Below, piece after piece: positions 5,366 to 64,000 of a stretch of 64,000 nt of DNA (position 1 is the first letter of the stretch; every line of letters starts with the position of its first letter). A model generated the notes under the pieces. The model saw only the letters and a program-made list of their open reading frames with translations. It did not search any database and was not told the origin of the DNA. Source of the stretch: Eledone cirrhosa (lineage: Eukaryota); the NCBI GenBank assembly GCA_964016885.1, contig OZ024748.1, forward strand, positions 54,746,001 to 54,810,000, in the 5' to 3' direction. The position numbers and the translations under genes were made by a program.

Positions 5366-7074
5366 ATAACTTCAAACCACTCTGGGTGGGCCTTCTAATT
5401 CACATTCATTTCTAAGGCGGGGATTCGAAATAAGCATATCGCCGTAAATATTTCTAAATCGAAGAGTACTCCACAGAAATGTAAGAAGGAAGTGACATTC
5501 AGTGCCCCACCTCCCCCAAGGACAGACCCAGGTGACTGTCCAAAAAGATGACTTATCATTAATTTACTTCCCCCATAGCGCCAAATAGAGTGTCTTCTTT
5601 GTGCTTTGTACGTTGTATTCTTTATTTAGTTATTTGTTATTTATTTGTTGTTATTTTGGCTTGGTTTTATTCGTGTCTCACCTGGATGCTAATTAATTAC
5701 CTGCTCACTTTATCTTCGTTTGGAACTATTTCTCGCTTGGAGCCCACCACCCTTTGCTTTACGGCGCCCGCCAGTCAAGAAGGTTGAATAGAGCCGAATT
5801 ATTTTAAAGTGTGACAGTCAGTAGTATAGGAAGCTTAATAAGACGGGTTTTGATAAGAAATCTAATTAAAACGAAATATTTCTTCTCTCGCCGACCAAAT
5901 GTCTTCTCACATGTGTTGTCAATTAGTGGAAGCTATTCGACCTGCCCATCCTCATATCATATCAAGCACTTGCTATTTATTTATTTATTTATTTGAGGGG
6001 GAGGGGTCATGTTTGACGCTTTTCTGTTTTTTTTTTTTGTTTTCTTTTGTTTGATATTTTCTTTTCATTTTTTTTTTCTTTTCAGAAGTGGACGCCAAGT
6101 TCATTTAGTACAATGTCAAATATTATTTCCACTTGAAAAAGTTTCTGCTAAGATATATCACTAAATAAGTAAATAAATAAATAATTAAATAAGTAAATGA
6201 ATAATTAGGGGTAAAGAATTATCAAATAGTTCCACAGTAAGACAAGATGGAGGAAACAAAATAAGGAGCAGAAAGCATTATAAAAGAATTATAAAAGAAA
6301 AGTAAAATGAACTAAGCTAAACATTTAAACCAAATTAGCAAGAAAGGTCATTAAGTGGTCTATTGAAGACACTGGCACCGTGAAATCAGGCTGCTTATTT
6401 TGGTAAAATAAATGAAGGTGGCGGAGGGGAGGGTGTAGTGTGGTGGTGGTGGGAGGGGTCAAATGAAGAAATGAAGAAAAAACTGGTGGAAACACTCAAA
6501 GCAGTTTAGTCGTTTGGTTTACAATAGTCAGAGAACGCCGGCATGGTTAAATTGTTAAGAAGTTTTCAGCATAAGGATGTCGTCTCGGGTTCAATCTCAT
6601 TGTAGTGGCACCGTGGTTGAGTGTTTCTTTTTTAATAGGGAAAGGAAAAAAAAAAAAAAAGTGCGATTGAGGGAAATTTGGTTGTTATATTTAGCAGGTT
6701 GAACAAGAACGTAAGGTTCTCTTTGTTGACTTGTAAATGGAGCTACATGTCATATATCAGCTGATAAAACTGTGATCAAGGGTGTTTCAGTCCCATAGCC
6801 ATTTCATTGCTAGTCCTTCATTTTGGTTATTCACGGCTACATTGTCCGATGTGTTTATTTTATTTTCAGACTGTAGCGTGTGGTTCAAAAGAGATTTAGC
6901 TGTCATTTCTAGCATGTCAAACGTGAGTATTCATGCGATTGAAGTTAACACCGAGACCAAGCAAACCAATGATTAAAACTGTCTCAGTTGTGATTATCTG
7001 ACCGTGACCTTCCCATCTTTATCTGTATATAAGACCCCCCCCCCTCTCTCTCTCCTGTAACTCATAAGGGAGTC

Positions 7075-7400
7075 ACATGGGCGCCGTATTGCCACAGTGT
7101 GTATCAAGGGCATTTTGAAACCTGGCGGAGCTCATCTCCTCTCCAGGCTTAAGTACAGCAGATTTTCCACAGAAGAGTAGAAAGTGAGAGAAAGAAAATG
7201 AGAAAGAGATTGAGAGAAAGAAAATGAGAAAGAGATATAGAGGAAGAATTGACCCCAGTATTAGACTGGTACATTTTTTATCGACCTTGAATGAATAAAA
7301 GGCAAAGTTGACCTCGGTGGGATTTGAACTCAGAGAGCAGGAATGAATACCACAAAGTATTATATCCGACGTTCTAACGACGCTGCCAATTCTCAGCCTT
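7075..7400 (-). mobile_element. SINE family B (A-like head, internal (TC)n, distinct 3' tail)
   Basis: ggcaaagttgacctcggtgggatttgaactcag head region; tail gggcattttgaaacctggcggag..cagcagattt is shared with the copy at 10110-10380. Confidence 0.75.
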
Positions 7401-7575
7401 ATATAGTTTGATTTCTACTCTCTGTCTGGAGAATAATAGGGGTGCGATTTGATGGAGATTTGACATCTATTTCTAGCTGTTCGCACGGTCACGTTGAGAC
7501 TACTCTATTGGCTTGAAAATAAACAAAGATAAATAAATCTCGTTCCTCTAATTTCCTTTTTTTATTCTCTGTTAA

Positions 7576-7752
7576 CAGTGTCCGATTTACCACTGTGCTA
7601 GGGTGTACTTAAGCACAATGCCCCGTTAGCCAGGAGGGGGCCCCATCTTCCTACCAAAAAGGGTTTTGATGGTGACTGTTTCCTTTAGAATCTAAGTAAG
7701 GGGCCCCAAAACTTAACTAGTACAGGGCCTCTTTTGCCTAAATCCGGCACTG
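7576..7752. mobile_element. hAT-type MITE
   Basis: TIRs cagtgtccgattta / taaatccggcactg; 8-bp flanks tctgttaa / tctgtttg (6/8 identical); internal gggcccc motifs. Confidence 0.7.
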
Positions 7753-8043
7753 TCTGTTTGTATTCTCTGTTTCTGTATCCCGAATTAATTTTAAACGCCA
7801 AAGAAAGACATGGAGCCTCAGCTAACGTAGGACACATTAACTAGATGATATGGGAAGAAATGTTCCTAAAACGATGTTATACCCATAGCTTGAATTCCTT
7901 GTTTCATTGGTTTGCTCAACCAAAGTTCACCTGTGACTACCCCCATCACGAAAGCAACAACAACAAAACTAGTAACAACAACAACAAGCTGTTTATTTTC
8001 TCCTTATTCTCATATCATTTCCATCCAATATATGTATTTACAT

Positions 8044-8079
<36 letters not shown>

Positions 8080-8164
8080 TGCGTATGTGTGCGTTTGCGT
8101 ATGTGTGTGTTCCCTATACAGGTACATAGGTACATGCATACATACGTGCAACACACATACATAA

Positions 8165-8225
8165 TTTATTTGGTCAACCGGAACCAGAACTAACAGTCAT
8201 TTCTGGTTCCGGTTGACTAAATAAA
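8165..8225. repeat. 25-bp-arm hairpin; right arm and downstream flank recur at about 40107-40182
   Basis: tttatttggtcaaccggaaccagaa-ctaacagtcat-ttctggttccggttgactaaataaa (1 mismatch). Confidence 0.85.
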
Positions 8226-8255
8226 ATATTTACACTTTATCCTCGATCGTTGTCA

Positions 8256-8350
<95 letters not shown>

Positions 8351-8418
8351 TATATATACACACACATATATATATTATGATATTTATGATATATACAGAA
8401 AGACAGAAGTAGTCAGAT

Positions 8419-8452
<34 letters not shown>

Positions 8453-8532
8453 TAAGAGAGAGACAGAGAAAGGGAGAGAGAGAGAAAGAGAGAAATATAT
8501 ATAGAGAGAGAGAAAGAGAGAAATATATATAT

Positions 8533-8609
<77 letters not shown>

Positions 8610-8892
8610 AGAAAGAGAAAGAGAGAGAAAGAGAAAGAAAGAGAGAGAAACAGAGAGAAAGAGAGAGAGAGAGAAATAGAAAGAAAGAGAAATAGAGAGA
8701 AAGAGAGATATTAAGAGAGATAGTAAGAGAGAGAGAGATAGATAGATAGATAGAGAGAGGTGTAGTGACAAATTGTTGAACAAGAGGAAGTCTCTAGGCA
8801 AACCTAGATTCTGATTCATTTTCAATTCCCGCTGGTAGCAATGCCACTTCATTAATAGTACTAATATCTTTTGGTAAAATATGAAAGTTAGA

Positions 8893-9226
8893 CATACCTC
8901 TCTTTGTCGACCCCAGCTCTCTCTCTCTCCTTATATATACCTCTCTCTGTATCCCCCATCTCTCTCTCCCTCCTTATATATACCTCTCTCTGTCTCCCCC
9001 AGTTCTCTCTCTCTCCCCTTATATATACCTCTCTCTGTCTCCCCCATCTCTCTCTCCCTCCTTATGCATACCTCCCTCTGTCTCCCCCAGTTCTCTCTCT
9101 CCCCCCTTATATATACCTCTCTCTGTCTCCCCCATCTCTCTCTCCCTCCTTATGCATACCTCCCTCTGTCTCCCCAGCTCTCACTCCCCCCTTATATATA
9201 TACCTCTCTCTGTCTCCCCTTCTATA
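8893..9226. repeat. Pyrimidine-rich minisatellite of about 40 bp
   Basis: About 8 units of acctctctctgtctccccca(g/t)..ctctctc..ccttatat. Confidence 0.85.
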
Positions 9227-11940: not shown

Positions 11941-12602
11941 TATATCAAAGATATATATTGAGTTAGGAACTCAAAATAGTCTCTTACAACAAAATTTGAA
12001 CACATATATGTAGATATCTGTGCAAAATTTGAACACATATGTATATATATCTATGTTCGTTTTTCTTTTATATTCTATTGTAATATACGGCTCGGAAATA
12101 TCTCTTTCTTAGAGCTATTTTGTTGTAAGAGACTATTTTGAGTTCCTAACTCAATATATACCTTTGATATATTCGGCTCCGTTAATTTGTTGAGCTATTT
12201 TAAATGTCAAATAAACCTGGCTGCGATTTTTAGTGGTGTAAGTTTGTGAGACACGCTAAGATACCATGTGCGCTATATTATATATAGCACACTATTCAGT
12301 TTCTTTATATACTTAGAAGTGTCTAGGATACTAATTCATCATTCACTGATGAGCTTGAATTGGTAATTCTATTCATAATTAACATTGCGAAACAACACCA
12401 AGTTGTCTGGGTGATTAGTAGTTACCACAATTGCGGTTTGTATTTATTTTCTTTATTTTCTTAAATTGTGACAAGCAAACCTAATTGTCTATAGTTAGTA
12501 TTCTTTCCACCTTAGCGAATCTGGTCCCTTACGATTTGGACACACATATGTATATATCTGTGTTCGTTTTTCTTTTTCTTTTTCTTTTATATTTTATTGT
12601 AG

Positions 12603-13870: not shown

Positions 13871-14268
13871 AAAAATAAAATAAATAAGTCAAATGTTTAA
13901 AATTTGACTTCGTTTATTACTGCTATATATATTTCGGTGACAGTCATCCTTGGCTGTGACCTCTTCAGGCAGTCCGAGTTAGTGTGGTAGAGACGAGTAC
14001 ACATGTTGTTGAGGTGTTTAACTTTGTCAATACTCTGATATGCCCAGTTCCTGGTTGGGTTGTTGTTTCACTGAGGAACTGGAATCATATGACTCCAGTT
14101 CCTGACTGTCACCGAAATATATATAGCAGTAATAAACGAAGCCAAATTTTAAACATTTGATTTATTTATTTTATTTTACATTACTCCGGATAACCAAACC
14201 AACCTGCGCACTTCGTCGAGCGCCCCAATCTGCATACTAAGGTGTTGGTATACAACCAACATATACTC

Positions 14269-17741: not shown

Positions 17742-17929
17742 TGTGTATCCCGGGTTCAATCGGGAGTAACTACAGTAAGGTACTCAATACATAGCAGAGT
17801 ATAACATTTTAATATAGAAATGGCTTCTACAGGACTAAAAGCGTTTCACTCGAAGGAAATCATCAGGAAAGCCCTGATCATTTCCTTCGAATGAAACAGT
17901 TATAGTCGTGTAGAAGCCATTTCTATATT
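17742..17929 (-). mobile_element. Fold-back hammerhead cassette; related copies at about 34558-34730 (+) and 46755-46885 (+)
   Basis: Arms of about 57 bp (17811-17867 / 17873-17929) plus tail cccgggttcaatcgg, whose complement ends the 34.7-kb copy. Confidence 0.75.
17822..17873 (-). ncRNA. Type I hammerhead motif (GUA)
   Basis: Reverse complement GGCTT(T)C-CTGATGA-tttccttcgagt-GAAACG-cttttagtcc-TGTA-GAAGCC; the 34.6-kb and 46.8-kb copies have stem III ACAG/CTGT. Confidence 0.65.
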
Positions 17930-19773: not shown

Positions 19774-19827
19774 TATTCTGAGGATTGAAAGCAAAACCTT
19801 TTGCTTTTAAGAAACCACTGGTAAATG
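19774..19827 (+). ncRNA. Type I hammerhead ribozyme motif (GUA); stem I truncated by (TA)n
   Basis: TATT-CTGAGGA-TTGAAAGCAAA-acct-TTTGCTTTTAA-GAA-ACC-act-GGT-A-AATG: 11-bp stem II, 3-bp stem III, 4-bp stem I. Confidence 0.75.
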
Positions 19828-29093: not shown

Positions 29094-29550
29094 ATATAAA
29101 ATCAAGGAAAAGCAAATAAAGGAAACATTTAAAAATAAATTTTACAATATTCACTGTATTTACTATATGTGCCTTTACCGCGGTTTCAGATCCCCAAAGA
29201 GTCCACCTTGCTTTCAGTCTTTTCACACGGTACTAGACAAAATTGTTTCATTATTCATTTGTTGGGGCAGTTTTGTATGGCGCCAGTTTGTATTTTGAAC
29301 TTGGGAATCTTATATTCTCCGAGAGAGAAAAGCCTTCTGACGAGGATCTCTTTCTCAATGGAAATCCGCTTGGATTATCTATTTGTTTTGGGATCTGAAA
29401 CCGCGGTAAAGGCACATATAGTAAGTACAGTGAATTTTTTGAAATTTATTTAAACATTTTTTCTTTATTTGATTTTCCTTGATTTTATATGTTGCCATTG
29501 AACCACACTTGCATACGGTCGGACTATACTTGTATCCCTGTGTATTAATT
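29094..29550 (+). mobile_element. Inverted-repeat cassette with hammerhead, between (TA)n tracts
   Basis: Arms of about 100 bp (29094-29194 / 29390-29490), 195-bp spacer, unique tail of about 60 bp. Confidence 0.75.
29332..29413 (+). ncRNA. Type I hammerhead ribozyme motif (GUA), palindromic stem III
   Basis: GCCTT-CTGACGA-GGATCTC-(39 nt)-GGGATCT-GAA-ACCGCGGT-A-AAGGC; predicted cleavage after A29408. Confidence 0.85.
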
Positions 29551-38109: not shown

Positions 38110-38301
38110 CATGCATATACATAGAAGGATATATATATTTTTATATTTACATACATACATACATACAGGGAAATATATATATATATATATGTGTGTATGT
38201 GTGTGTGTGTGTGTGTGTGTATTTTTTTTTGAATATATACATACATATATATATATATACGATATATTAACAAATGTAAACTATATTTATAAAACCATAT
38301 T

Positions 38302-38366
38302 TATTTCATTATACATATTTCAAGGACACCAAGTTAAATTATGGTGTGCTTTCATCAGATAAAATA
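38302..38366 (-). ncRNA. Type I hammerhead ribozyme motif (AUA)
   Basis: Reverse complement TATTTTAT-CTGATGA-AAGcACACCA-taatttaact-TGGTGTcCTT-GAA-ATATGTAT-A-ATGAAATA: 8-bp stem I, 9/10-bp stem II, near-palindromic stem III. Confidence 0.85.
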
Positions 38367-38904
38367 TAATATAGACCAGTTTTATAAATAAATATTGACA
38401 TATCCTTAAAGAATGCGACCATTTCTGTTGGAAGCTCCCGGATATATATATATATATATATATACATATATACATACATACATACATACATATACACCTA
38501 CACTTAATGTGTATAATTCTGTTGGATAATATATGTTAAAGTCAGTGATAGCAACTGTAATTCAATTAAACCAGCCTTGTCACACATTGCGTCACATTGA
38601 ATCTCCATGAGAACTACGTTAAGGATACACGTGTCTGTGGAATGCTTAGCCACTTACACGGGAATCTAATGAACGGGCAGTTCCGTTGATTGAATCAACT
38701 GAAGTATTTGTTGTTGGAAACGACTGAGCTCCAACAAGAACAACAAACAGAAAATCTAAACAAGAATTTACGAACAAAACAGCTCCAGGTTTTGAAGACT
38801 TGGAATTTAATCACTTTTCTGATTAAGAATCCCCATAGAGGTTGATGAAAACTGTATCTGCAATGGTACAGTTTATACTGGTGAAGGGAATGAGAAATAT
38901 AACT

Positions 38905-47962: not shown

Positions 47963-48017
<55 letters not shown>

Positions 48018-48092
48018 ACCGCTTGTCTGCACAATACGGAAGTTGCGTTTCGCTAATTTCTACCCGCCGAAATGCGATTCTCGCAAACTTTA

Positions 48093-48147
<55 letters not shown>

Positions 48148-48407
48148 TTCTGTCTTCTCTCACCTTCTCTCTCTTCCTTTACTGCCCCTCCCCTCTCTCA
48201 TATATATATTCACACACATTATATACATACATACATACAATTCTCCAATCATCCATTTCTCTATTTGTTCAGACATTTACCTATATATCCCTGCACTTTT
48301 TCCATTTATACAATTATACATATGTACTTTAATCTTTCTATTTCACATCCCCCGCCCTCTCCTTCTTCAAACAGACTCTCTCTCTCTCTATCTGTCCATA
48401 CCTGGCA

Positions 48408-48484
<77 letters not shown>

Positions 48485-48585
48485 TATATATACATATGTT
48501 TTATAGCCTATTATCTACTTACGACCATCTGTCTGTTTAGGGGACCACAACAAACTACGAGAATGTCACGTTAATAAAACAAACG

Positions 48586-49375
48586 CCCACCACCGCTACC
48601 AAAACCACTACCACCAACATTGCCGCCACCCCCGTGGCCCATCCACCGCCACCACCGCTACCAAAACCACTACCACCAACATTGCCGACACCCCCGTGGC
48701 CCATCCACCGCCACCACCGCTACCAAAACCCCTACCACCACCATTGCCGACACCCCCGTGGCCCATCCACCGCCACCACCGCTACCAAAACCACTACCAC
48801 CACCGCTACCAAAACCACTGCCACCACCATTGCCGACACCCCCGTGGCCCATCCACCGCCACCACCGCTACCAAAACCACTACTACCACCATTGCCGCCA
48901 CCCCCGTGGCCCATCCACCGCCACCACCGCTACCAAAACCCCTACCACCACCATTGCCGACACCCCCGTGGCCCATCCACCGCCACCACCGCTACGAAAA
49001 CCCCTACCACCACCATTGCCGCCACCCCCGTGGCCCATCCACCGCCACCACCGCTACCAAAACCACTACTACCACCATTGCCGACACCCCCGTGGCCCAT
49101 CCACAGCCACCACTGCTACCACGAAAGCCACTACCACCACCATCGTGCCCCCCCACTGCTACCAGCAAAACCACTACCACCACCATTGCCGCCACCACCG
49201 TGGCCCATCCACCACCACCACTGCTACCAGCAAAACCACTATCACCACCATTGCCGCCACCACCACAGGCCATCCACCACCATCACCACCACCACTGCTA
49301 GCAGCAAAACCACTACCACCACCATTGCCGCCACCACCGTGGCCCATGCACCACCACCACCGCCACCACTACCAA
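48586..49375. repeat. 62-bp C-rich minisatellite (about 8 conserved plus 4 degenerate units)
   Basis: gtggcccatcc at 48634, 48696, 48758, 48844 (extra 24-bp sub-duplication), 48906, 48968, 49030 and 49092. Confidence 0.95.
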
Positions 49376-49723
49376 ATCCACTACCACCACCACCGTCACT
49401 ACCACTACAATCACAACTATGACCACCACCATAACTATTTCAACCATCGCCACCCTATCACACCGCTACTACCCTCATCACAGTCATCTACCCTCCCTAA
49501 CACCACAACCACCACTTCCAACCACCACCACCACCAGTACCACTACAACCAGTACCACCACTACCACTACAACCATTACCACCACCACTATCACCACTAC
49601 AAACACTACCACCACACCACTACCACCACCACTACAACCAGTACCACCACTACCAGCATTAAAACCAGTACCACTACAACCACTACCACCACCACTACAA
49701 CACCTTCCATTATTACCATTATT

Positions 49724-50101
49724 GGGCGGTTAATTGGCAGTATCGGTAGAGGGTTGGACGCCATGCTTTACAGCATAGTTACGTCCCTTTATGTTCCGAG
49801 TTCAAATCCTGCCAAGGTTAACTTTGCCTTTCAGCCTCACGGGGTCGATAAAATAAAGTACCAGTAATACACTGGGATAATTACTGGCCTTGTGCCAAAA
49901 GTAGAAACAATTATTACCATTACAGTGGTGGTTTTGCAGTATCGGTAGAGCGTGAGACACCATGCTTTGCAACACAGAGTTGTGTCACTTTACGGCCCCA
50001 GTTCAAATCCCGCTGAGGTTAGCTTTGCCTTTCATACTTACGGGTCGATAAATAAAGCACCAGTAATTGCTGGCGTTATGCCAAAAGTAGAAACAATTAT
50101 T
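49724..50101 (+). mobile_element. Two tandem SINE family A copies with a triplicated target site
   Basis: 49724-49914 and 49925-50101; attattaccatta before, between and after. Confidence 0.88.
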
Positions 50102-50190
50102 ACCATTACAACCACTACCACACTAACATCATTACAACTACTACCACCACTGCCGCAATTACCGCCACAACCACCACTACCATCACTAAC

Positions 50191-53100
50191 ACCACTACGA
50201 CCAACATCATCTAACACCACTACGACCAACATCATCTAACACCACTACGACCAACAACATATAACATCACTACGACCAACATCATCTAACACCACTACGA
50301 CGAACATCATCTAACACCAATACGACCAACAGCATCGAACATCACTACGACCAACAACATATAACATCACTACGACCAACATCATCTAACATCACTACGA
50401 CCAACAACATCTAACATCACTACGACCAACAGCATCTAACATCACAACGACCAACAACATGTAACATCACGACAACCAACAACATCTAACATCACTACGA
50501 CCAACAACATCTAACATCACTACGACCAACATCATCTAACACCACTACGACCAACAACATCTAACACCACTACGACCAACATCATCTAACACCACTACGA
50601 CCAACAACATCTAACACCACTACGACCAACAACATCTAAAACCACTACGACCAACAACATTTAACACCACTACGACCAACAATATCTAACACCACTACGA
50701 CCAACAACATCTAACACCACTACGACCAACAACATCTAACACCACTTCGACCAACAACATCTAACATCACTACGACCAACAGCATCTAACATCACTACAA
50801 CCAACATCATCTAACACCACTTCGACCAACAGCATCTAACACCACTACGACCAACATCATCTAACACCACTACGACCAACAACATCTAACACCACTACGA
50901 CCAACAACATCTAACATCACTACGACCAACATCATCTAACAACACTACGACCACCAACATCTAACATCACTACGACCAACATCATCTAACACCACTACGA
51001 CCAACAGCATCTAACATCACTACGACCAACAGCATCTAACATCACTACGACCAACATCATCTAACACCACTACGACCAACAGCATCTAACACCACTACGA
51101 CCAACATCATCTAACACCACTACGACCAACAACATCTAACACCACTACGACCAACAGCATCTAACACCACTACGACCAACAACATCTAACATCACTACGA
51201 CCAACAGCATATAACATCACTACGACCAACAGCATCTAACACCACTACGACCAACAACATCTAACATCACTACGACCAACAGCATCTAACACCACTACGA
51301 CCAACAGCATCTAACATCACTACGACCAACAACATCTAACATGACTACGACCAACAGCATCTAACATCACTACGACCAACAGCATCTAACACCACTACGA
51401 CCAACAACATCTAACATCACTACGACCAACAGCATCTAACACCACTACGACCAACAACATCTAACATCACTACGACCAACATCATCTAACACCACTACGA
51501 CCAAAAACATCAAACATCACGACAACCAACAACATCTAACACCACTACGACCAACAACATCTAACATCACTACGACCAACAGCATCTAACACCACTACGA
51601 CCAACAACATCTAACATCACTACGACCAACAGCATCTAACACCACTACGACCAACAACATCTAACATCACTACGACCAACAGCATATAACACCACTACGA
51701 CCAACATCATCTAACACCACTACGACCAAAAACATCAAACATCACGACAACCAACAACATCTAACACCACTACGACCAACAGCATCTAACATCACTAGGA
51801 CCAACAGCATGTAACATCACTACGACCAACAACATCTAACATCACTACGACCAACATCATCTAACACCACTACGACCAACAACATCTAACACCACTTCGA
51901 CCAACAACATCTAACATCACTACGACCAACAACATCTAACATCACTACGACCAACATCATCTAACATCACTAGGACCAACAGCATGTAACATCACTACGA
52001 CCAACAACATCTAACATCACTACGACCAACAGCATCTAACACCACTACGACCAACAACATCTAACACCACTTCGACCAACAACATCTAACATCACTACGA
52101 CCAACAACATCTAACATCACTACGACCAACATCATCTAACACCACTACGACCAACAACATCTAACACCACTACGACCAACATCATCTAACACCACTACGA
52201 CCAACAACATCTAACACCACTACGACCAACAACATCTAACACCACTACAACCAACAACATCGAAAACCACTACGACCAACAACATTTAACACCACTACGA
52301 CCAACAACATCTAACACCACTACGACCAACAACATCTAACACCACTACAACCAACAACATCTAACACCACTACGACCAACAACATCTAACATCACTACGA
52401 CCAACAGCATCCAACATCACTACGACCAACATCATCTAACACCACTACGACCAACAGCACCTAACACCACTACGACCAACATCATCTAACACCACTACGA
52501 CCAACAACATCTAACACCACTACGACCAACAGCATCTAACATCACTACGACCAACAGCATATAACATCACTACGACCAACAGCATCTAACACCACTACGA
52601 CCAACAACATCTAACATCACCACGACCAACAGCATCTAACACCACTACGACCAACAGCATCTAACATCACTACGACCAACAACATCTAACATGACTACGA
52701 CCAACAGCATCTAACAGCACTACGACCAACAGCATCTAACACCACTACGACCAACAACATCTAACATCACGACGACCAACAGCATCTAACACCACTACGA
52801 CCAACAACATCTAACATCACTACGACCAACAGCATCTAACACCACTACGACCAACATCATCTAACACCACTACGACCAACAACATCTAACACCACTACGA
52901 CCAAAAACATCAAACATCACGACAACCAACAACATCTAACACCACTACGACCAACAACATCTAACATCACTACGACCAACAGCATCTAACACCACTACGA
53001 CCAACAACATCTAACACCACTACGACCAAAAACATCAAACATCACGACAACCAACAACATCTAACACCACTACGACCAACAACATCTAACATCACTACGA

Positions 53101-56100
53101 CCAACAGCATCTAACACCACTACGACCAACAACATCTAACACCACTACGACCAACAATATCTAACATCACTACGACCAAAAACATCAAACATCACGACGA
53201 CCAACAGCATCTAACACCAGTACGATCAACAGCATCTAACACCACTACGACCAACAACATCTAACATGACTACGACCAACAGCATCTAACACCACTACGA
53301 CCAACAACATCTAACACCACTACGACCAAAAACATCAAACATCACGACAACCAACAGCATCTAACACCACTACGACCAACAGCATCTAACACCACTACGA
53401 CCAACAACATCTAACATCACTACGACCAACAGCATCTAACACCACTACGACCAACAACATCTAACACCACTACGACCAACAACATCTAACACCACTACGA
53501 CCAACAACATCTAACATCACTACGACCAACAGCATCTAACACCACTACGACCAACAACATCTAACACCACTACGACCAACAACATCTAACACCACTACGA
53601 CCAACAACATCTAACATCACTACGACCAACATCATCTAACACCTCTACGACCAACAACATTTAACACCACTACGACCAACAACATCTAACACCACTACGA
53701 CCAACATCATCTAACACCTCTACGACCAACAACATTTAACACCACTACGACCAACAACATCTAACATCACTACGACCAACAACATTTAACACCACTACGA
53801 CCAACAACATCTAACACCACTACGACCAACAGCATCTAACACCACTTCGACCAACAACATCTAACACCACTTCGACCAACAACATCTAACATCACTACGA
53901 CCAACAGCATCTAACACCACTTCGACCAACAGCATCTAACATCACTACGACCAACAGCATCTAACATCACTACGACCAACATCATCTAACACCACTACGA
54001 CCAACATCATCTAACACCACTTCGACCAACAGCATCTAACACCACTTCGACCAACAGCATCTAACACCACTACGACCAACATCATCTAACACCACTACGA
54101 CCAACAACATCTAACATCACTACGACTAACATATTCTAACATCACTACGACCAACAACATCTAACATCACTACAACCAACATCATCTAACACCACTACGA
54201 CCAACAGCATCTAACATCACTACGACCAACAGCATCTAACATCACTACGACCAACAACATCTAACACCACTACGACCAACAGCATCTAACACCACTACGA
54301 CCAACATCATCTAACACCACTACGACCAACAACATCTAACACCACTACGACCAACAGCATCTAACACCACTACGACCAACAACATCTAACATCACTACGA
54401 CCAACAGCATATAACATCACTACGACCAACAGCATCTAACACCACTACGACCAACAACATCTAACATCACTACGACCAACAGCATCTAACACCACTACGA
54501 CCAACAGCATCTAACATCACTACGACCAACAACATCTAACATGACTACGACCAACAGCATCTAACATCACTACGACCAACAGCATCTAACACCACTACGA
54601 CCAACAACATCTAACATCACTACGACCAACAGCATCTAACACCACTACGACCAACATCATCTAACACCACTACGACCAAAAACATCAAACATCACGACAA
54701 CCAACAACATCTAACACCACTACGACCAACAACATCTAACATCACTACGACCAACAGCATCTAACACCACTACGACCAACAGCATCTAACACCACTACGA
54801 CCAACAACATCTAACATAACTACGACCAACATCATCTAACACCACTACGACCAACAGCATCTAACACCACTACGACCAACAACATCTAACATCACTACGA
54901 CCAACAGCATCTAATACCACTACGACCAACAACATCAAACACCACTACGTCCAACAAAATCTAACACCACTACGACCAACAACATCTAACATCACTACGA
55001 CCAACATCATCTAACACCACTACCACCAAAAGCATCTAACATCACTACGACCAACAGCATCTAACATCACTACGATCAACATCATCTAACACCACTACGA
55101 CCAACAGCATCTAACACCACTACGACCAACATCATCTAACACCACTACGACCAACAACATCTAACCACACTACGACCAACAGCATCTCATATCACTACGA
55201 CCAACAGCATCTAACACCACTACGACCAACAACATCTAACATCACTACGACCAACACCATCTAACATCACTACGAACAACAGCATCTAACACCACTACGA
55301 CCAACAACATCTAACATCACTACGACCAACGGCATCTAACATCACTACGACCAACAGCATCTAACATCACTACGACCAACAGCATCTCATATCACTACGA
55401 CCAACAACATCTAACACCACTACGACCAACAACATCTAACATCACTACGACCAACACCATCTAACATCACTACGAACAACAGCATCTAACACCACTACGA
55501 CCAACAACATCTAACATCACTACGACCAACGGCATCTAACATCACTACGACCAACAGCATCTAACATCACTACGACCAACAGCATCTCATATCACTACGA
55601 CCAACAGCATCTAACACCACTACGACCAACAACATCTAACATCACTAAGACCAACACCATCTAACATCACTACGAACAACAGCATCTAACACCACTACGA
55701 CCAACAACATCTAACATCACTACGACCAACGGCATCTAACATCACTACGACCAACAGCATCTAACATCACTACGACCAACAGCATCTCATATCACTACGA
55801 CCAACAACATCTAACACCACTACGACCAACAACATCTATCACCACTACGAACAACAGCATCTAACATCACTACGACCAACAGCATCTAACACCACTAAAA
55901 CCAACAACATCTAACATCACAACAGCCAACAACATCTAACATCACTACGACCAACAGCATCTAACACCACTACGACCAACAACATCTAACATCACTACGA
56001 CCAACAGCATCTAACAACACTACGACCAACAGCATCTAACATCACTACGACCAACAGCATCTAACATCACTACGACCAACGGCATCTAACACCACTACGA

Positions 56101-59100
56101 CCAACAATATCTAACATCACCACAACCAACAGCATCTAACATCACTACGACCAACAGCATCTAACATCACTACGACCAACGGCATATAACACCACTACGA
56201 CCAACAATATCTAACATCACCACAACCAACAACATCTAACACCACTACGACCAACAACATCTAACATCACTACGACCAACAACATCTAACATCACTACGA
56301 CCAACAACATCTAACACCACTACGACCAACATCATCTAACATCACTACGACCAACAGCATCTAACACCACTACGACCAACAACATCTAACACCAGTACGA
56401 CCAACAGCATCTAACATCACTACGACCAACAGCATCTAACACCACTACGACCAACATCATCTAACAACACTACGACCAACAACATCTAACAGCACTACGA
56501 CCAACAGCATCTAACACCACTACGACCAACAACATCTAACATCACTACGACCAACAGCATCTAACATCACTACGACCAACAGCATCTAACATCACTACGA
56601 CCAACAGCATCTAACATCACTACGACCAACAGCATCTAACAACACTACGACCAACACCATCTAACATCACTACGAACAACAGCATCTAACACCACTACGA
56701 CCAACAACATCTAACACCACTACGACCAACATCATCTAACATCACTACGACCAACAGCATCTAACACCACTACGACCAACAACATCTAACACCAGTACGA
56801 CCAACAGCATCTAACATCACTACGACCAATAGCATCTAACACCACTACGACCAACAACATCTAACATCACGACAACCAACAACATCTAACACCACTACGA
56901 CCAACAGCATCTAATACCACTACGACCAACAACATCTAACATCACTACGACCAACAGCATCTAACACCACTACGACCAACATCATCTAACATCACTACGA
57001 CCAACAGCATCTAACATCACTACGACCAACAGCATCTAACACCACTACGACCAACAATATCTAACATCACTACGACCAACAGCATCTAACATCACTACGA
57101 CCAACAGCATCTAACACCACTACGACCAACAACATCTAACATCACTACTACCAACAGCATCTAACACCACTACGGCCAACAACATCTAACACCACTACGA
57201 CCAACAGCATCTAACACCACTACGACCAACATCATCTAACACCACTACGACCAACAACATCAAACATCACGACAACCAACAACATCTAACACCACTACGA
57301 CCAACAACATCTAACATCACTACGACCAACAGCATCTAACACCACTACGACCAACAACATCTAACACCACTACGACCAACAATATCTAACATCACTACGA
57401 CCAACATCATCTAACACCACTACGACCAACAGCATCTAACACCACTACGACCAACAACATCTAACATAACTACGACCAACATCATCTAACACCACTACGA
57501 CCAACAGCATCTAACACCACTACGACCAACAACATCTAACATCACTACGACCAACAGCATCTAACACCACTACGACCAACATCATCTAACATCACTACGA
57601 CCAACAGCATCTAACACCACTACGACCAACAGCATCTAACACCACTACGACTAACAACATCTAACATAACTACGACCAACATCATCTAACACCACTACGA
57701 CCAACAGCATCTAACACCACTACGACCAACAACATCTAACATCACTACGACCAACAGCATCTAACACCACTACGACCAACAACATCAAACACCACTACGT
57801 CCAACAAAATCTAACACCACTACGACCAACAACATCTAACATCACTACGACCAACATCATCTAACACCACTACGACCAAAAGCATCTAACATCACTACGA
57901 CCAACAGCATCTAACATCACTACGATCAACATCATCTAACACCACTACGACCAACAGCATCGAACACCACTACGACCAACATCATCTAACACCACTACGA
58001 CCAACAACATCTAACCACACTACGACCAACAGCATCTCATATCACTACGACCAACAGCATCTAACACCACTACGACCAACAACATCTAACATCACTACGA
58101 CCAACACCATCTAACATCACTACGAACAACAGCATCTAACACCACTACGACCAACAACATCTAACATCACTACGACCAACGGCATCTAACATCACTACGA
58201 CCAACAGCATCTAACACCACTAAAACCAACAACATCTAACATCACGACAGCCAACAACATCTAACATCACTACGACCAACAGCATCTAACACCACTACGA
58301 CCAACAACATCTAACATCACTACGACCAACAGCATCTAACACCACTACGACCAACAGCATCTAACATCACTACGACCAACAGCATCTAACATCACTACGA
58401 CCAACAGCATCTAACACCACTACGACCAACAATATCTAACATCACTACGACCAACAGCATCTAACATCACTACGACCAACAGCATCTAACACCACTACGA
58501 CCAACAACATCTAACATCACTACTACCAACAGCATCTAACACCACTACGGCCAACAACATCTAACACCACTACGACCAACAGCATCTAACACCACTACGA
58601 CCAACATCATCTAACACCACTACGACCAACAACATCAAACATCACGACAACCAACAACATCTAACACCACTACGACCAACAACATCTAACATCACTACGA
58701 CCAACAGCATCTAACACCACTACGACCAACAACATCTAACACCACTACGACCAACAATATCTAACATCACTACGACCAACATCATCTAACACCACTACGA
58801 CCAACAGCATCTAACACCACTACGACCAACAACATCTAACATAACTACGACCAACATCATCTAACACCACTACGACCAACAGCATCTAACACCACTACGA
58901 CCAACAACATCTAACATCACTACGACCAACAGCATCTAACACCACTACGACCAACATCATCTAACATTACTACGACTAACAGCATCTAACATCACTACGA
59001 CCAACAGCATCTAACACCACTATGACCAACAATATCTAACATCACTACGAACAACAGCATCTAACATCACTACGACCAACATCATCTAACATCACTACTA

Positions 59101-62100
59101 CCAACAACATCTAACATCACTACGACCAACAATATCTAACATCACTACGACCAACATCATCTAACACCACTACGACCAACAGCATCTAACACCACTACGA
59201 CCAACAACATCTAACATCACTACGACCAACAGCATCTAACACCACTACGACCAACAACATCAAACACCACTACGTCCAACAATATCTAACACCACTACGA
59301 CCAACAACATCTAACATCACTACGACCAACAACATCTAACATCACTACGACCAACAACATCTAACATCACTACGACCAACAGCATCTAACATCACTACGA
59401 CCAACGGCATCTAACACTACTACGACCAACAATATCTAACATCACCACAACCAACAACATCTAACACCACTACGACCAACAACATCTAACATCACTACGA
59501 CCAACAACATCTAACATCACTACGACCAACAACATCTAACACCACTACGACCAACATCATCTAACATCACTACGACCAACAGCATCTAACACCACTACGA
59601 CCAACAACATCTAACACCAGTACGACCAACAGCATCTAACATCACTACGACCAACAGCATCTAACACCACTACGACCAACATCATCTAACAACACTACGA
59701 ACAACAGCATCTAACACCACTACGACCAACAACATCTAACACCACTACGACCAACATCATCTAACATCACTACGACCAACAGCATCTAACACCACTACGA
59801 CCAACAACATCTAACACCAGTACGACCAACAGCATCTAACATCACTACGACCAACAGCATCTAACACCACTACGACCAACAACATCTAACATCACGACAA
59901 CCAACAACATCTAACACCACTACGACCAACAGCATCTAATACCACTACGACCAACAACATCTAACATCACTACGACCAACAGCATCTAACACCACTACGA
60001 CCAACAGCATCTAACATCACTACGACCAACAGCATCTAACATCACTATGACCAACAGCATCTAACACCACTACGACCAACAATATCTAACATCACTACGA
60101 CCAACAGCATCTAACACCACTACGACCAACAGCATCTAACACCACTACGACCAACAACATCTAACATCACTACTACCAACAGCATCTAACACCACTACGG
60201 CCAACAACATCTAACACCACTACGACCAACAGCATCTAACACCACTACGACCAACATCATCTAACACCACTACGACCAACAACATCAAACATCACGACAA
60301 CCAACAACATCTAACACCACTACGACCAACAACATCTAACATCACTACGACCAACAGCATCTAACACCACTACGACCAACAACATCTAACACCACTACGA
60401 CCAACAATATCTAACATCACTGCGACCAACATCATCTAACACCACTACGACCAACAACATCTAACATAACTACGACCAACATCATCTAACACCACTACGA
60501 CCAACAGCATCTAACACCACTACGACCAACAACATCTAACATCACTACGACCAACAGCATCTAACACCACTACGACCAACATCATCTAACATTACTACGA
60601 CCAACAGCATCTAACATCACTACGACCAACAGCATCTAACACCACTATGACCAACAATATCTAACATCACTACGAACAACAGCATCTAACATCACTACGA
60701 CCAACATCATCTAACATCACTACTACCAACAACATCTAACATCACTACGACCAACAATATCTAACATCACTACGACCAACATCATCTAACACCACTACGA
60801 CCAACAGCATCTAACACCACTACGACCAACAACATCTAACATCACTACGACCAACAGCATCTAACACAACTACGACCAACAACATCAAACACCACTACGT
60901 CCAACAACATCTAACATCACTACGACCAACAACATCTAACATCACTACGACCAACAACATCTAACATCACTACGACCAACAACATCTAACATCACTACGA
61001 CCAACAACATCTAACACCAGTACGACCAACAACATCTAACATCACTACGACCAACAACATCTAACACCAGTACGACCAACAGCATCTAACATCACTACGA
61101 CCAACAGCATCTAACACCATTACGACCAACAACATCTAACATCACGACAACCAACAACATCTAACACCACTACGACCAAAAGCATCTAACACCACTACGA
61201 CCAACAACATCTAACATCACTACGACCAACAGCATCTAACACCACTACGACCAACAGCATCTAACATCACTACGACCAACAGCATCTAACATCACTACGA
61301 CCAACAGCATCTAACACCACTACGACCAACAATATCTAACATCACTACGAACAACAGCATCTAACATCACTACGACCAACATCATCTAACATCACTACTA
61401 CCAACAACATCTAACATCACTACGACCAACATCATCTAACACCACTACGACCAACAGCATCTAACATCACTACGACGAACAGCATCTAACATCACTACGA
61501 CCAACATCATCTAACACCACTACGACCAACAGCATCTAACATCACTACGACCAACAGCATCTAACACCACTACGACCAACAACATCTAATATCACTACGA
61601 CCAACACCATCTAACATCACTACGAACAACAGCATCTAACACCACTACGACCAACAACATCTAACACCACTACGACCAACATCATCTAACATCACTACGA
61701 CCAACAGCATCTAACACCACTACGACCAACATCATCTAACATCACTACGACCAACAGCATCTAACATCACTACGACCAACAGCATCTAACACCACTACGA
61801 CCAACAATATCTAACATCACTACGACCAACAGCATCTAACATCACTACGACCAACAGAATCTAACACCACTACGACCAACAACATCTAACATCACTACGA
61901 CCAACATCATCTAACATCACTACGACCAACAACATCTAACATCACTACGCCCAACAGCATCTAACATCACTACGACCAACATCATCTAACATCACTACTA
62001 CGAACAACATCTAACATCACTACGACCAACAACATCTAACATCACTACGACCAACATCATCTAACACCACTACGACCAACAGCATCTAACATCACTACGA

Positions 62101-64000
62101 CCAACAGAATCTAACATCACTACGACCAACATCATCTAACACCACTACAACCAACAGCATCTAACACCACTACGACCAACAACATCTAACATCACTACGA
62201 CCAACACCATCTAACATCACTACGAACAACAGCATCTAACATCACTACGACCAACAGCATCTAACATCACTACGACCAACAGCATCTAACACCACTACGA
62301 CCAACAACATCTAACACCACTACAACCAACAGCATCTAACACCACTTCGACCAACAACATCTACCACCACTACGACCAACATCATCTAACATCACTACGA
62401 CCAACAGCATCTAACACCACTACGACCAACAACATCTAACATCACTACGACCAACATCATCTAACACCACTACGACCAACAACATCTAACATCACTACGA
62501 CCAACAGCATCTAACATCACTACGACCAACAGCATCTAACATCACTACGACCAACAGCATCTAAGACCACTACGACCAACAACATCTAACATCACGACAA
62601 CCAACAACATCTAACACCACTACGACCAACAACATCTAACACCACTACGACCAACAGCATCTAACACCAGTACGACCAACAACATCTAACATCACTACGA
62701 CCAACAGCATCTAACATCACTACGACCAACAGCATCTAACACCACTACAACCAACAGCATCTAACACCAGTACGACCAACAACATCTAACATCCCTACGA
62801 CCATCAGCATCTAACATCACTACGACCAACAGCATCTAACATCACTACGACCAACAGCATCTAACACCACTACGACCAACAATATCTAACATCACTACGA
62901 ACAACAGCATCTAACATCACTACGACCAACATCATCTAACACCACTACGACCAACAGCATCTAACATCACTACGACCAACAGCATCTAACACCACTACGA
63001 CCAACAATATCTAACATCACTACGAACAACAGCATCTAACATCACTACGACCAACATCATCTAACATCACTACTACCAACAACATCTAACATCACTACGA
63101 CCAACAACATCAAACATCACGACAACCAACAACATCTAACACCACTACGACCAACAGCATCTAACATCACTACGACGAACAGCATCTAACATCACTACGA
63201 CCAACATCATCTAACACCACTACGACCAACAGCATCTAACATCACTACGACCAACACCATCTAACATTACTACGAACAACAGCATCTAACACCACTACGA
63301 CCAACAACATCTAACACCACTACGACCAACATCATCTAACATCACTACGACCAACAGCATCTAACACCACTACGACCAACAGCATCTAAGACCACTACGA
63401 CCAACATCATCTAACATCACTACGACCAACAGCATCTAACATCACTACGACCAACAGCATCTAACACCACTACGACCAACAATATCTAACATCACTACGA
63501 CCAACAGCATCTAACATCACTACGACCAACAGCATCTAACACCACTACGACCAACAACATCTAACATCACTACGACCAACATCATCTAACATCACTACGA
63601 CCAACAACATCTAACATCACTACGACCAACATCATCTAACACCACTACGACCAACAACATCTAACATAACTACGACCAACATCATCTAACACCACTACGA
63701 CCAACAGCATCTAACACCACTACAACCAACAGCATCTAACACCACTACGACCAACAACATCTAACATCACTACGACCAACACCATCTAACATCACTACGA
63801 ACAACAGCATCTAACATCACTACGACCAACAGCATCTAACATCACTACGACCAACAGCATCTAACACCACTACGACCAACAACATCTAACACCACTACGA
63901 CCAACAGCATCTAACACCACTTCGACCAACAACATCTACCACCACTACGACCAACAACATCTAACATCACTACGACCAACAGCATCTAACACCACTACGA
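50191..64000. repeat. 25-bp satellite array, about 552 units, running off the window end
   Basis: Consensus A(C/T)CACTACGACCAACA(A/G/T)CATCTAAC; same phase at 50191 and 63991 (13,800 = 552 x 25). Confidence 0.98.

Follow-up and report, generated by a model that had tools for sequence, protein, structure and literature searches.

The window, the whole stretch of 64,000 nucleotides that was analysed, carries an island of 188 bp between TA tracts, and the minus strand of this island holds a complete type I hammerhead core (Table 1). A sequence-only reading of the window had described a canonical minus-strand hammerhead without a long fold-back, lying in an island of about 180 bp between TA tracts. 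These points were confirmed: the measured island is close to the estimate, the type I core is complete, and no inverted arm was found beside the window copy. No tandem array was found in the window, in which the hammerhead of the island is present as a single copy, and the window copy lacks the 92-nt tail that is found on other copies.

A search of the 3.0-Gb genome with the island returned 692 candidates, of which the 40 that were scored were 97-100% identical to the island, and the 39 scored places other than the island itself were 97-99% identical. Over its 188 nt, the island was 97.9% identical to the upstream pLTR of a near-complete copy (L184).

Table 1. Features of the island and its hammerhead, in window coordinates
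Feature	Position	Strand	Evidence
Island, very probably a 5'-truncated pLTR fragment of a Hydra-clade Penelope-like element	38257..38444	-	Sequence identity to copies
3' end point 1 of the element	38257..38262	-	52 nt past the cut site, into (TA)n; 53 of 95 sampled copies end here
Distal stem I extension, 3' arm	38284..38295	-	Predicted fold
Type I hammerhead motif	38302..38366	-	Sequence; covariation over 54 rows
Stem I, 3' arm	38302..38309	-	Covariation alignment
Predicted cleavage site after A17 (AUA^), between 38310 and 38309	38309..38310	-	Hammerhead numbering; A17 in 73 of 74 copies
Stem III octamer AUAUGUAU, self-complementary via two G·U pairs	38311..38318	-	Pairing computation, pattern counts
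Core GAA (G12-A14)	38319..38321	-	GAA in 70 of 74 copies
Stem II with 10-nt loop	38322..38351	-	Pair probabilities 0.94-1.0; 3 pairs with two-sided changes
Core CUGAUGA (C3-A9)	38352..38358	-	Position 7 variable; elsewhere only scattered changes in 74 copies
Stem I, 5' arm	38359..38366	-	98.8% of cells paired; one pair with two-sided change
Distal stem I extension, 5' arm	38379..38390	-	Predicted fold
5' truncation junction, TAT in common with the (TA)n tract	38440..38444	-	Identical junction in 3 of 95 sampled copies

Several other features of the window were noted. A second type I hammerhead family lies between TA tracts at 13909-13975 (minus strand), with a head-to-head partial partner at 14071-14160 (plus strand). 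The minus-strand member has the box CUGAAGA, stem III ATATATAT and stem I ACUGC/GCAGU, and the family likely represents another end of a Penelope-like element (PLE). A type I hammerhead-like motif at 19778-19823 (plus strand) has a long stem II, and its stem III reads ACCA-C-TGGT; it matches the published Hydra-1_Obim motif in shape. Core-like matches at 12346-12404 (plus), 17833-17866 (minus) and 29337-29377 (plus) do not have the type I layout; in all three, upstream sequence takes part in a strong hairpin that includes or adjoins the CUGANGA box, and they are possibly permuted hammerheads. The stretch from about 48000 to 64000 shows extreme strand skew (GC skew about -0.7, AT skew about +0.5) and is probably a satellite array.

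The hammerhead and the selection on its fold

The minus strand from 38366 to 38302 reads UAUUUUAU CUGAUGA (stem II) GAA AUAUGUAU A^ AUGAAAUA, with the CUGANGA, GAAA and UH boxes in type I order together with stems I and II. Stem I has the 8 base pairs originally read, one of which is U·G. Its proposed extension is present in the predicted fold as a 12-bp distal helix, but a 5-bp helix and a 5-nt bulge lie between this helix and stem I, and stem I with its extension reaches about 25 bp. Stem II likewise has the 9 pairs of the sequence-only reading, but its fourth position is an additional C·C mismatch (38348/38325), and its first pair is A-U, not G-C. All subfamilies, even the diverged clade with a CG centre in stem III, retain the C·C mismatch, which suggests a contact or a binding site. 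A contact between loop II and the stem I bulge (AAC/GUU vs AAU/AUU) was seen in one sub-lineage, and its geometry varies among subfamilies; we treat it as a lead only. Small deletions recur inside the hammerhead at short direct repeats (L111, L117, L122, L139, L157 and L168), and one such deletion is present at three separate loci.

The exact pattern from stem II to stem I of the window subfamily matched the genome 6,253 times, the 31-mer past the cut site had 15,629 exact matches, and a degenerate pattern that includes sister subfamilies had 30,224; each reversed control gave 0. For closer analysis, 95 copies picked by the downstream 31-mer were sampled from the first 42 Mb of one contig (30 loci from the 31-mer matches and 40 of 45 further regions). 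The core statistics refer to the 74 of these 95 copies that retain both core boxes with at most one mismatch in each. Position 7 of the core varies freely among them (T 43, A 13, G 11, C 7).

The window copy was then aligned with 53 of the 55 distinct copies (54 rows), two copies with insertions being omitted. In this alignment 96.7% of the stem cells were paired, compared with 35-52% in slid-register controls. Cells with a two-sided change numbered 50 against 20.2 in shuffles, a count drawn from a few related subfamilies, in which single cells do not represent separate events; pairs with two-sided changes numbered 4, which was not above the shuffles (318 of 500). The distal part of stem I was left out of the count because its 3' arm had been used for sample selection. 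As judged from this alignment, the hammerhead stems covary, indicating selection on the fold.

Folding of the 65-mer alone was modest (z -1.8), as was that of a 108-mer (z -2.9), and Rfam returned no hammerhead match at the gathering threshold or at E values up to 10. The silence of Rfam limits the Rfam label, not the motif. The motif is not a chance occurrence because of its copy number, with reversed-pattern controls at 0, and because of the covariation; folding by itself would be weak evidence.

The parent element

Longer copies led from the hammerhead to a frame encoding RT and GIY-YIG, and the parent element is laid out as pLTR, 5'UTR, RT/GIY-YIG frame of about 2.2 kb, 3'UTR of 1.3-1.8 kb, and pLTR. 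Two direct copies of the motif flank the frame in 6 of the 8 long loci that were fetched, 3,691-4,240 nt apart, and the ATG, where found, lies 187-190 nt past the upstream cut site. No complete, unbroken ATG-to-stop frame was present among the copies examined.

The RT and GIY-YIG marks LYRDD, YVG and RFNNH occur in a single frame, as in EN+ PLEs. Published Hydra-clade marks are RWK, DKT, a CxCx5C linker, and CxxC and CxH around conserved E and N (PMC8557442). The frame has RWR, DKT, CxCx5C (CNCRNKSNC), CxxCxE (CDLCIE) and Nx5CxH (NNLFSCCRH), and by eye its protein resembles the published Hydra-1_Obim motif by motif. A profile of 49 relatives gave a weak match to a retron RT (E 0.019). Pfam gave nothing meaningful for two frames or seven relatives, and a single-sequence search of the PDB gave 0 matches. 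PF26215 was present solely as a precomputed accession on many of 106 relatives, which include sequences from Octopus bimaculoides and Argonauta. Judged by its motifs, which were compared with the published proteins by reading, the frame appears to belong to a Hydra-clade PLE. The pLTRs in partial tandem, the inverted 5'-truncated arms and the tail at one end are also those of a PLE.

Two further observations concern frames outside this family. GIY-YIG frames near L010, L017 and L018 were considered and rejected, having no match to the hammerhead family beyond the island. In L032, at about 6940-9100 (plus strand), a second, different Hydra-clade frame (RWK, DKT, CxCx5C) is present in two long pieces, and no hammerhead pattern was found after it.

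Two fixed end points and a tail on one arm

Copies of the element end at two fixed points, 50-52 nt and 142-145 nt past the cut site. While 53 of the 95 copies end at the first point, 42 carry tail sequence, and ends of both types mostly run into (TA)n, the insertion target of the Hydra clade. Of 23 head-to-head pairs, 22 have the tail on one arm and not on the other, as do 17 of 17 pairs within 1.3 kb (about 6e-6 if the arms were independent); among the longer pairs, at least L163 probably does not represent a single insertion. By alignment, none of the 95 copies has its 5' end within 2 nt of the cut site, and one (L112) does by eye. Between the two pLTRs of a given element, 1-3 of 168 positions differ, and in L183, L184 and L186 both pLTRs carry the same private variants. 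In contigs from two of three sequencing runs, loose ends at each of the two end points extend into TA repeats; these runs may come from the assembly's own sample and are not expression evidence.

The stem III centre and the predicted pairing of hammerheads

In a self-duplex of the octamer AUAUGUAU, all 8 positions pair, with tandem U·G/G·U in the centre. The computed energies of the octamer self-duplex were -2.2 kcal/mol for a UG centre, -3.2 for UA, -6.5 for CG and +0.4 for CA, which makes the duplex with UG a weak one. Within a monomer, the pairing probability of stem III was 0.001. The double hammerhead was computed at -23.6 kcal/mol vs 2 x monomer -12.0 kcal/mol, and the two-strand minimum-energy fold (-26.1 kcal/mol) is not the double hammerhead.

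Among the 100 matches listed of the 6,253 in the window subfamily, the centre is TG in 98 and CA in none; over all 6,253, CG occurs 12 times and TA 91 times. The octamers of the 74 sampled copies were ATATGTAT (57), ATATATAT (12), ATATGCAT (3) and others (2), with ATACGTAT at 0. In the wider family, hand counts gave 58 ATATATAT (TA) and 42 TG centres among 100 matches listed of 30,224. A CG or CA centre occurs in 166 of the 30,224, and among 100 of these listed, 85 were CG and 15 CA by hand count. Most CG copies form a separate clade, with support of 100/100 in a 33-row tree built with the two central bases masked, and this clade is more diverged internally than the rest (8.5% vs 4.3%). On these comparisons, ATACGTAT marks a small, older sister clade. 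The expectation of a palindromic family consensus therefore fits the wider family, with its ATATATAT majority and its ATACGTAT clade, but not the window subfamily, whose centre is TG.

The amplified lineages thus use UG, UA or CG centres, all of them self-complementary, which in the pairing model supports the idea that two hammerheads act as a dimer. Three lineages with three self-complementary centres are what the dimer model of PMC4209133 predicts. From the identity of the island, the parent element and the pairing computations, we are highly confident that the island is a broken-off pLTR of a Hydra-clade Penelope-like retroelement, inserted in (TA)n and carrying a type I hammerhead predicted to cut RNA only as a pair. 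The lone window copy, being without a partner, is likely inert.

An alternative is that the motif is under selection but acts as a protein-assisted monomer or as a protein-binding structure, and not as an RNA-only dimer. We consider this unlikely, yet far from negligible. In an anole PLE, the hammerhead cut only in the presence of protein, and insertion in vitro could proceed without the hammerhead (PMC11167929). A stem I of about 25 bp, the C·C mismatch common to all subfamilies and the lack of a pile-up of insertions at the cut site would also suit a protein partner. Against it, the UG, UA and CG centres all preserve dimer pairing, yet they would fit a monomer stem of 2-3 bp with a short loop as well.

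The sequence-only reading had placed stem III one transition from a palindrome and attributed the difference to CpG decay, by which the window copy would have had ATACGTAT at insertion and lost it by deamination. The first part stands in so far as a ATACGTAT sister clade exists, but AUAUGUAU is already self-complementary through its two G·U pairs. Decay is visible inside the CG clade, where one arm has CG and the other TG (L198) or CA (L201). For the window copy, however, the sequence comparisons refute it, leaving hardly any room for this explanation: CG is rare in the subfamily and CA absent among the 100 matches listed, and with the two central bases masked the window copy still groups with TG copies (98% to L131). 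Because TG is the norm in its subfamily, the window copy inherited its TG centre. The TG/TA/CG tree has a midpoint root only, and a single ancient CG-to-TG change in a master element may have occurred.

That the island is a non-autonomous retrozyme or a viroid-like circular RNA unit is very improbable: it is short, non-coding and low in GC, has a type I hammerhead and belongs to a family whose genomic copies are mostly short, but the tandem short non-coding units, each with a hammerhead, of non-LTR retrozymes are missing, there is no tandem array at the window copy, and the 5' ends vary continuously and extend in longer copies into the long 3'UTR and the RT frame.

Proposed mechanism and significance

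Returning to the PLE fragment with a paired hammerhead, we propose that in the parent transcript the upstream and downstream hammerheads would swap strands, so that a single 8-bp stem III arises from the two AUAUGUAU octamers, and that cutting at the paired hammerheads would release a unit-length RNA. The element's enzyme would likely nick (TA)n and prime reverse transcription at the two fixed points, and reverse transcription would then read through an intact (uncut or re-ligated) hammerhead. At the window copy, it would have stopped after about 188 nt, at the TAT match with the target. A circular template, as proposed for PLEs (PMC4209133), would fit, and so would a tandem read-through transcript with template jumps.

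Tentatively, and with more doubt than confidence, we suggest that a dimeric PLE enzyme may bind a single RNA at two sites that contain TA and lie 92 nt from each other, priming one from each break end in (TA)n; the RNA may be a circle that was closed at the hammerhead. Such coordinated two-site priming would explain the tail on one arm, the read-through of the intact hammerhead and the private variants common to both pLTRs. If it is true, the roughly 30,000 young copies would make the PLE template question directly testable.

The window copy by itself matters little, being ordinary apart from its family. The family is a natural test of the dimer model, with UG, UA and CG centres in separately amplified lineages. 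A large set of young insertions with a strict one-tail rule is also useful for work on PLE transposition, whose mechanism PMC8557442 names as unresolved.

Comparison with known systems

This kind of element is already known: hammerheads in PLE end repeats, the Hydra clade and Octopus included, have been published (PMC8557442). The family itself was not found in the searched parts of the literature on PLE hammerheads, the Hydra clade and octopus PLEs, and the repeat library of PMC13282606 or Repbase may hold it.

Hydra-clade elements carry hammerheads, among them Hydra-1_Obim of Octopus bimaculoides (Craig et al. 2021, PMC8557442). Like that clade and Hydra-1_Obim, the present family has a C-terminal GIY-YIG after the RT, RWK-type and DKT motifs, the CxCx5C linker, and C-terminal CxxC and CxH. 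It also shares with the clade the (TA)n targets, a canonical hammerhead near the 3' end, inverted 5'-truncated arms and a tail at one end. Unlike in the Hydra clade, RWR replaces the published RWK, and the unit is 3.7-4.2 kb long, whereas Hydra-clade elements are generally <3 kb, a tendency rather than a strict rule; the difference is due to the 1.3-1.8-kb 3'UTR. The tail is 92 nt, compared with 30-40 bp given for PLEs. Unlike Hydra-1_Obim, whose hammerhead sequence differs and whose published stem III is acca-a-tggt, the family has an even-length wobble palindrome in stem III (all PMC8557442).

Similar to the PLE hammerheads of Cervera and De la Pena 2014 (PMC4209133), the hammerhead here is of type I, is present in both pLTRs and has a long stem II; in both cases the palindromic helix III is proposed to work as a dimer, and most motifs are scattered single truncated copies. 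The published PLE hammerheads cleave poorly in vitro (PMC4209133). Unlike them, position 10.1-11.1 is A-U here (A·C or A·A in sister subfamilies) and not G-C, stem I is longer (8 bp plus the extension), and stem II has the conserved C·C mismatch. Compared with metazoan non-LTR retrozymes (PMC7229834; bioRxiv 10.64898/2026.07.22.740005), the island shares the type I hammerhead, the low GC and the PLE relationship, but the window copy is a lone piece of an autonomous element rather than a tandem-array unit.

In Poseidon of Anolis carolinensis (Frangieh et al. 2024, PMC11167929), as proposed for the present family, two fixed starts of reverse transcription define the tail and uncut RNA is the inserted form; the targets are AT-rich in both. 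In that anole PLE, cutting needed protein and insertion did not need cutting (PMC11167929). Unlike in Poseidon, the two end points here are 92 nt apart and upstream of the ATG, each is located at a stretch that contains TA and matches the (TA)n target, and the hammerhead does not overlap the start codon.
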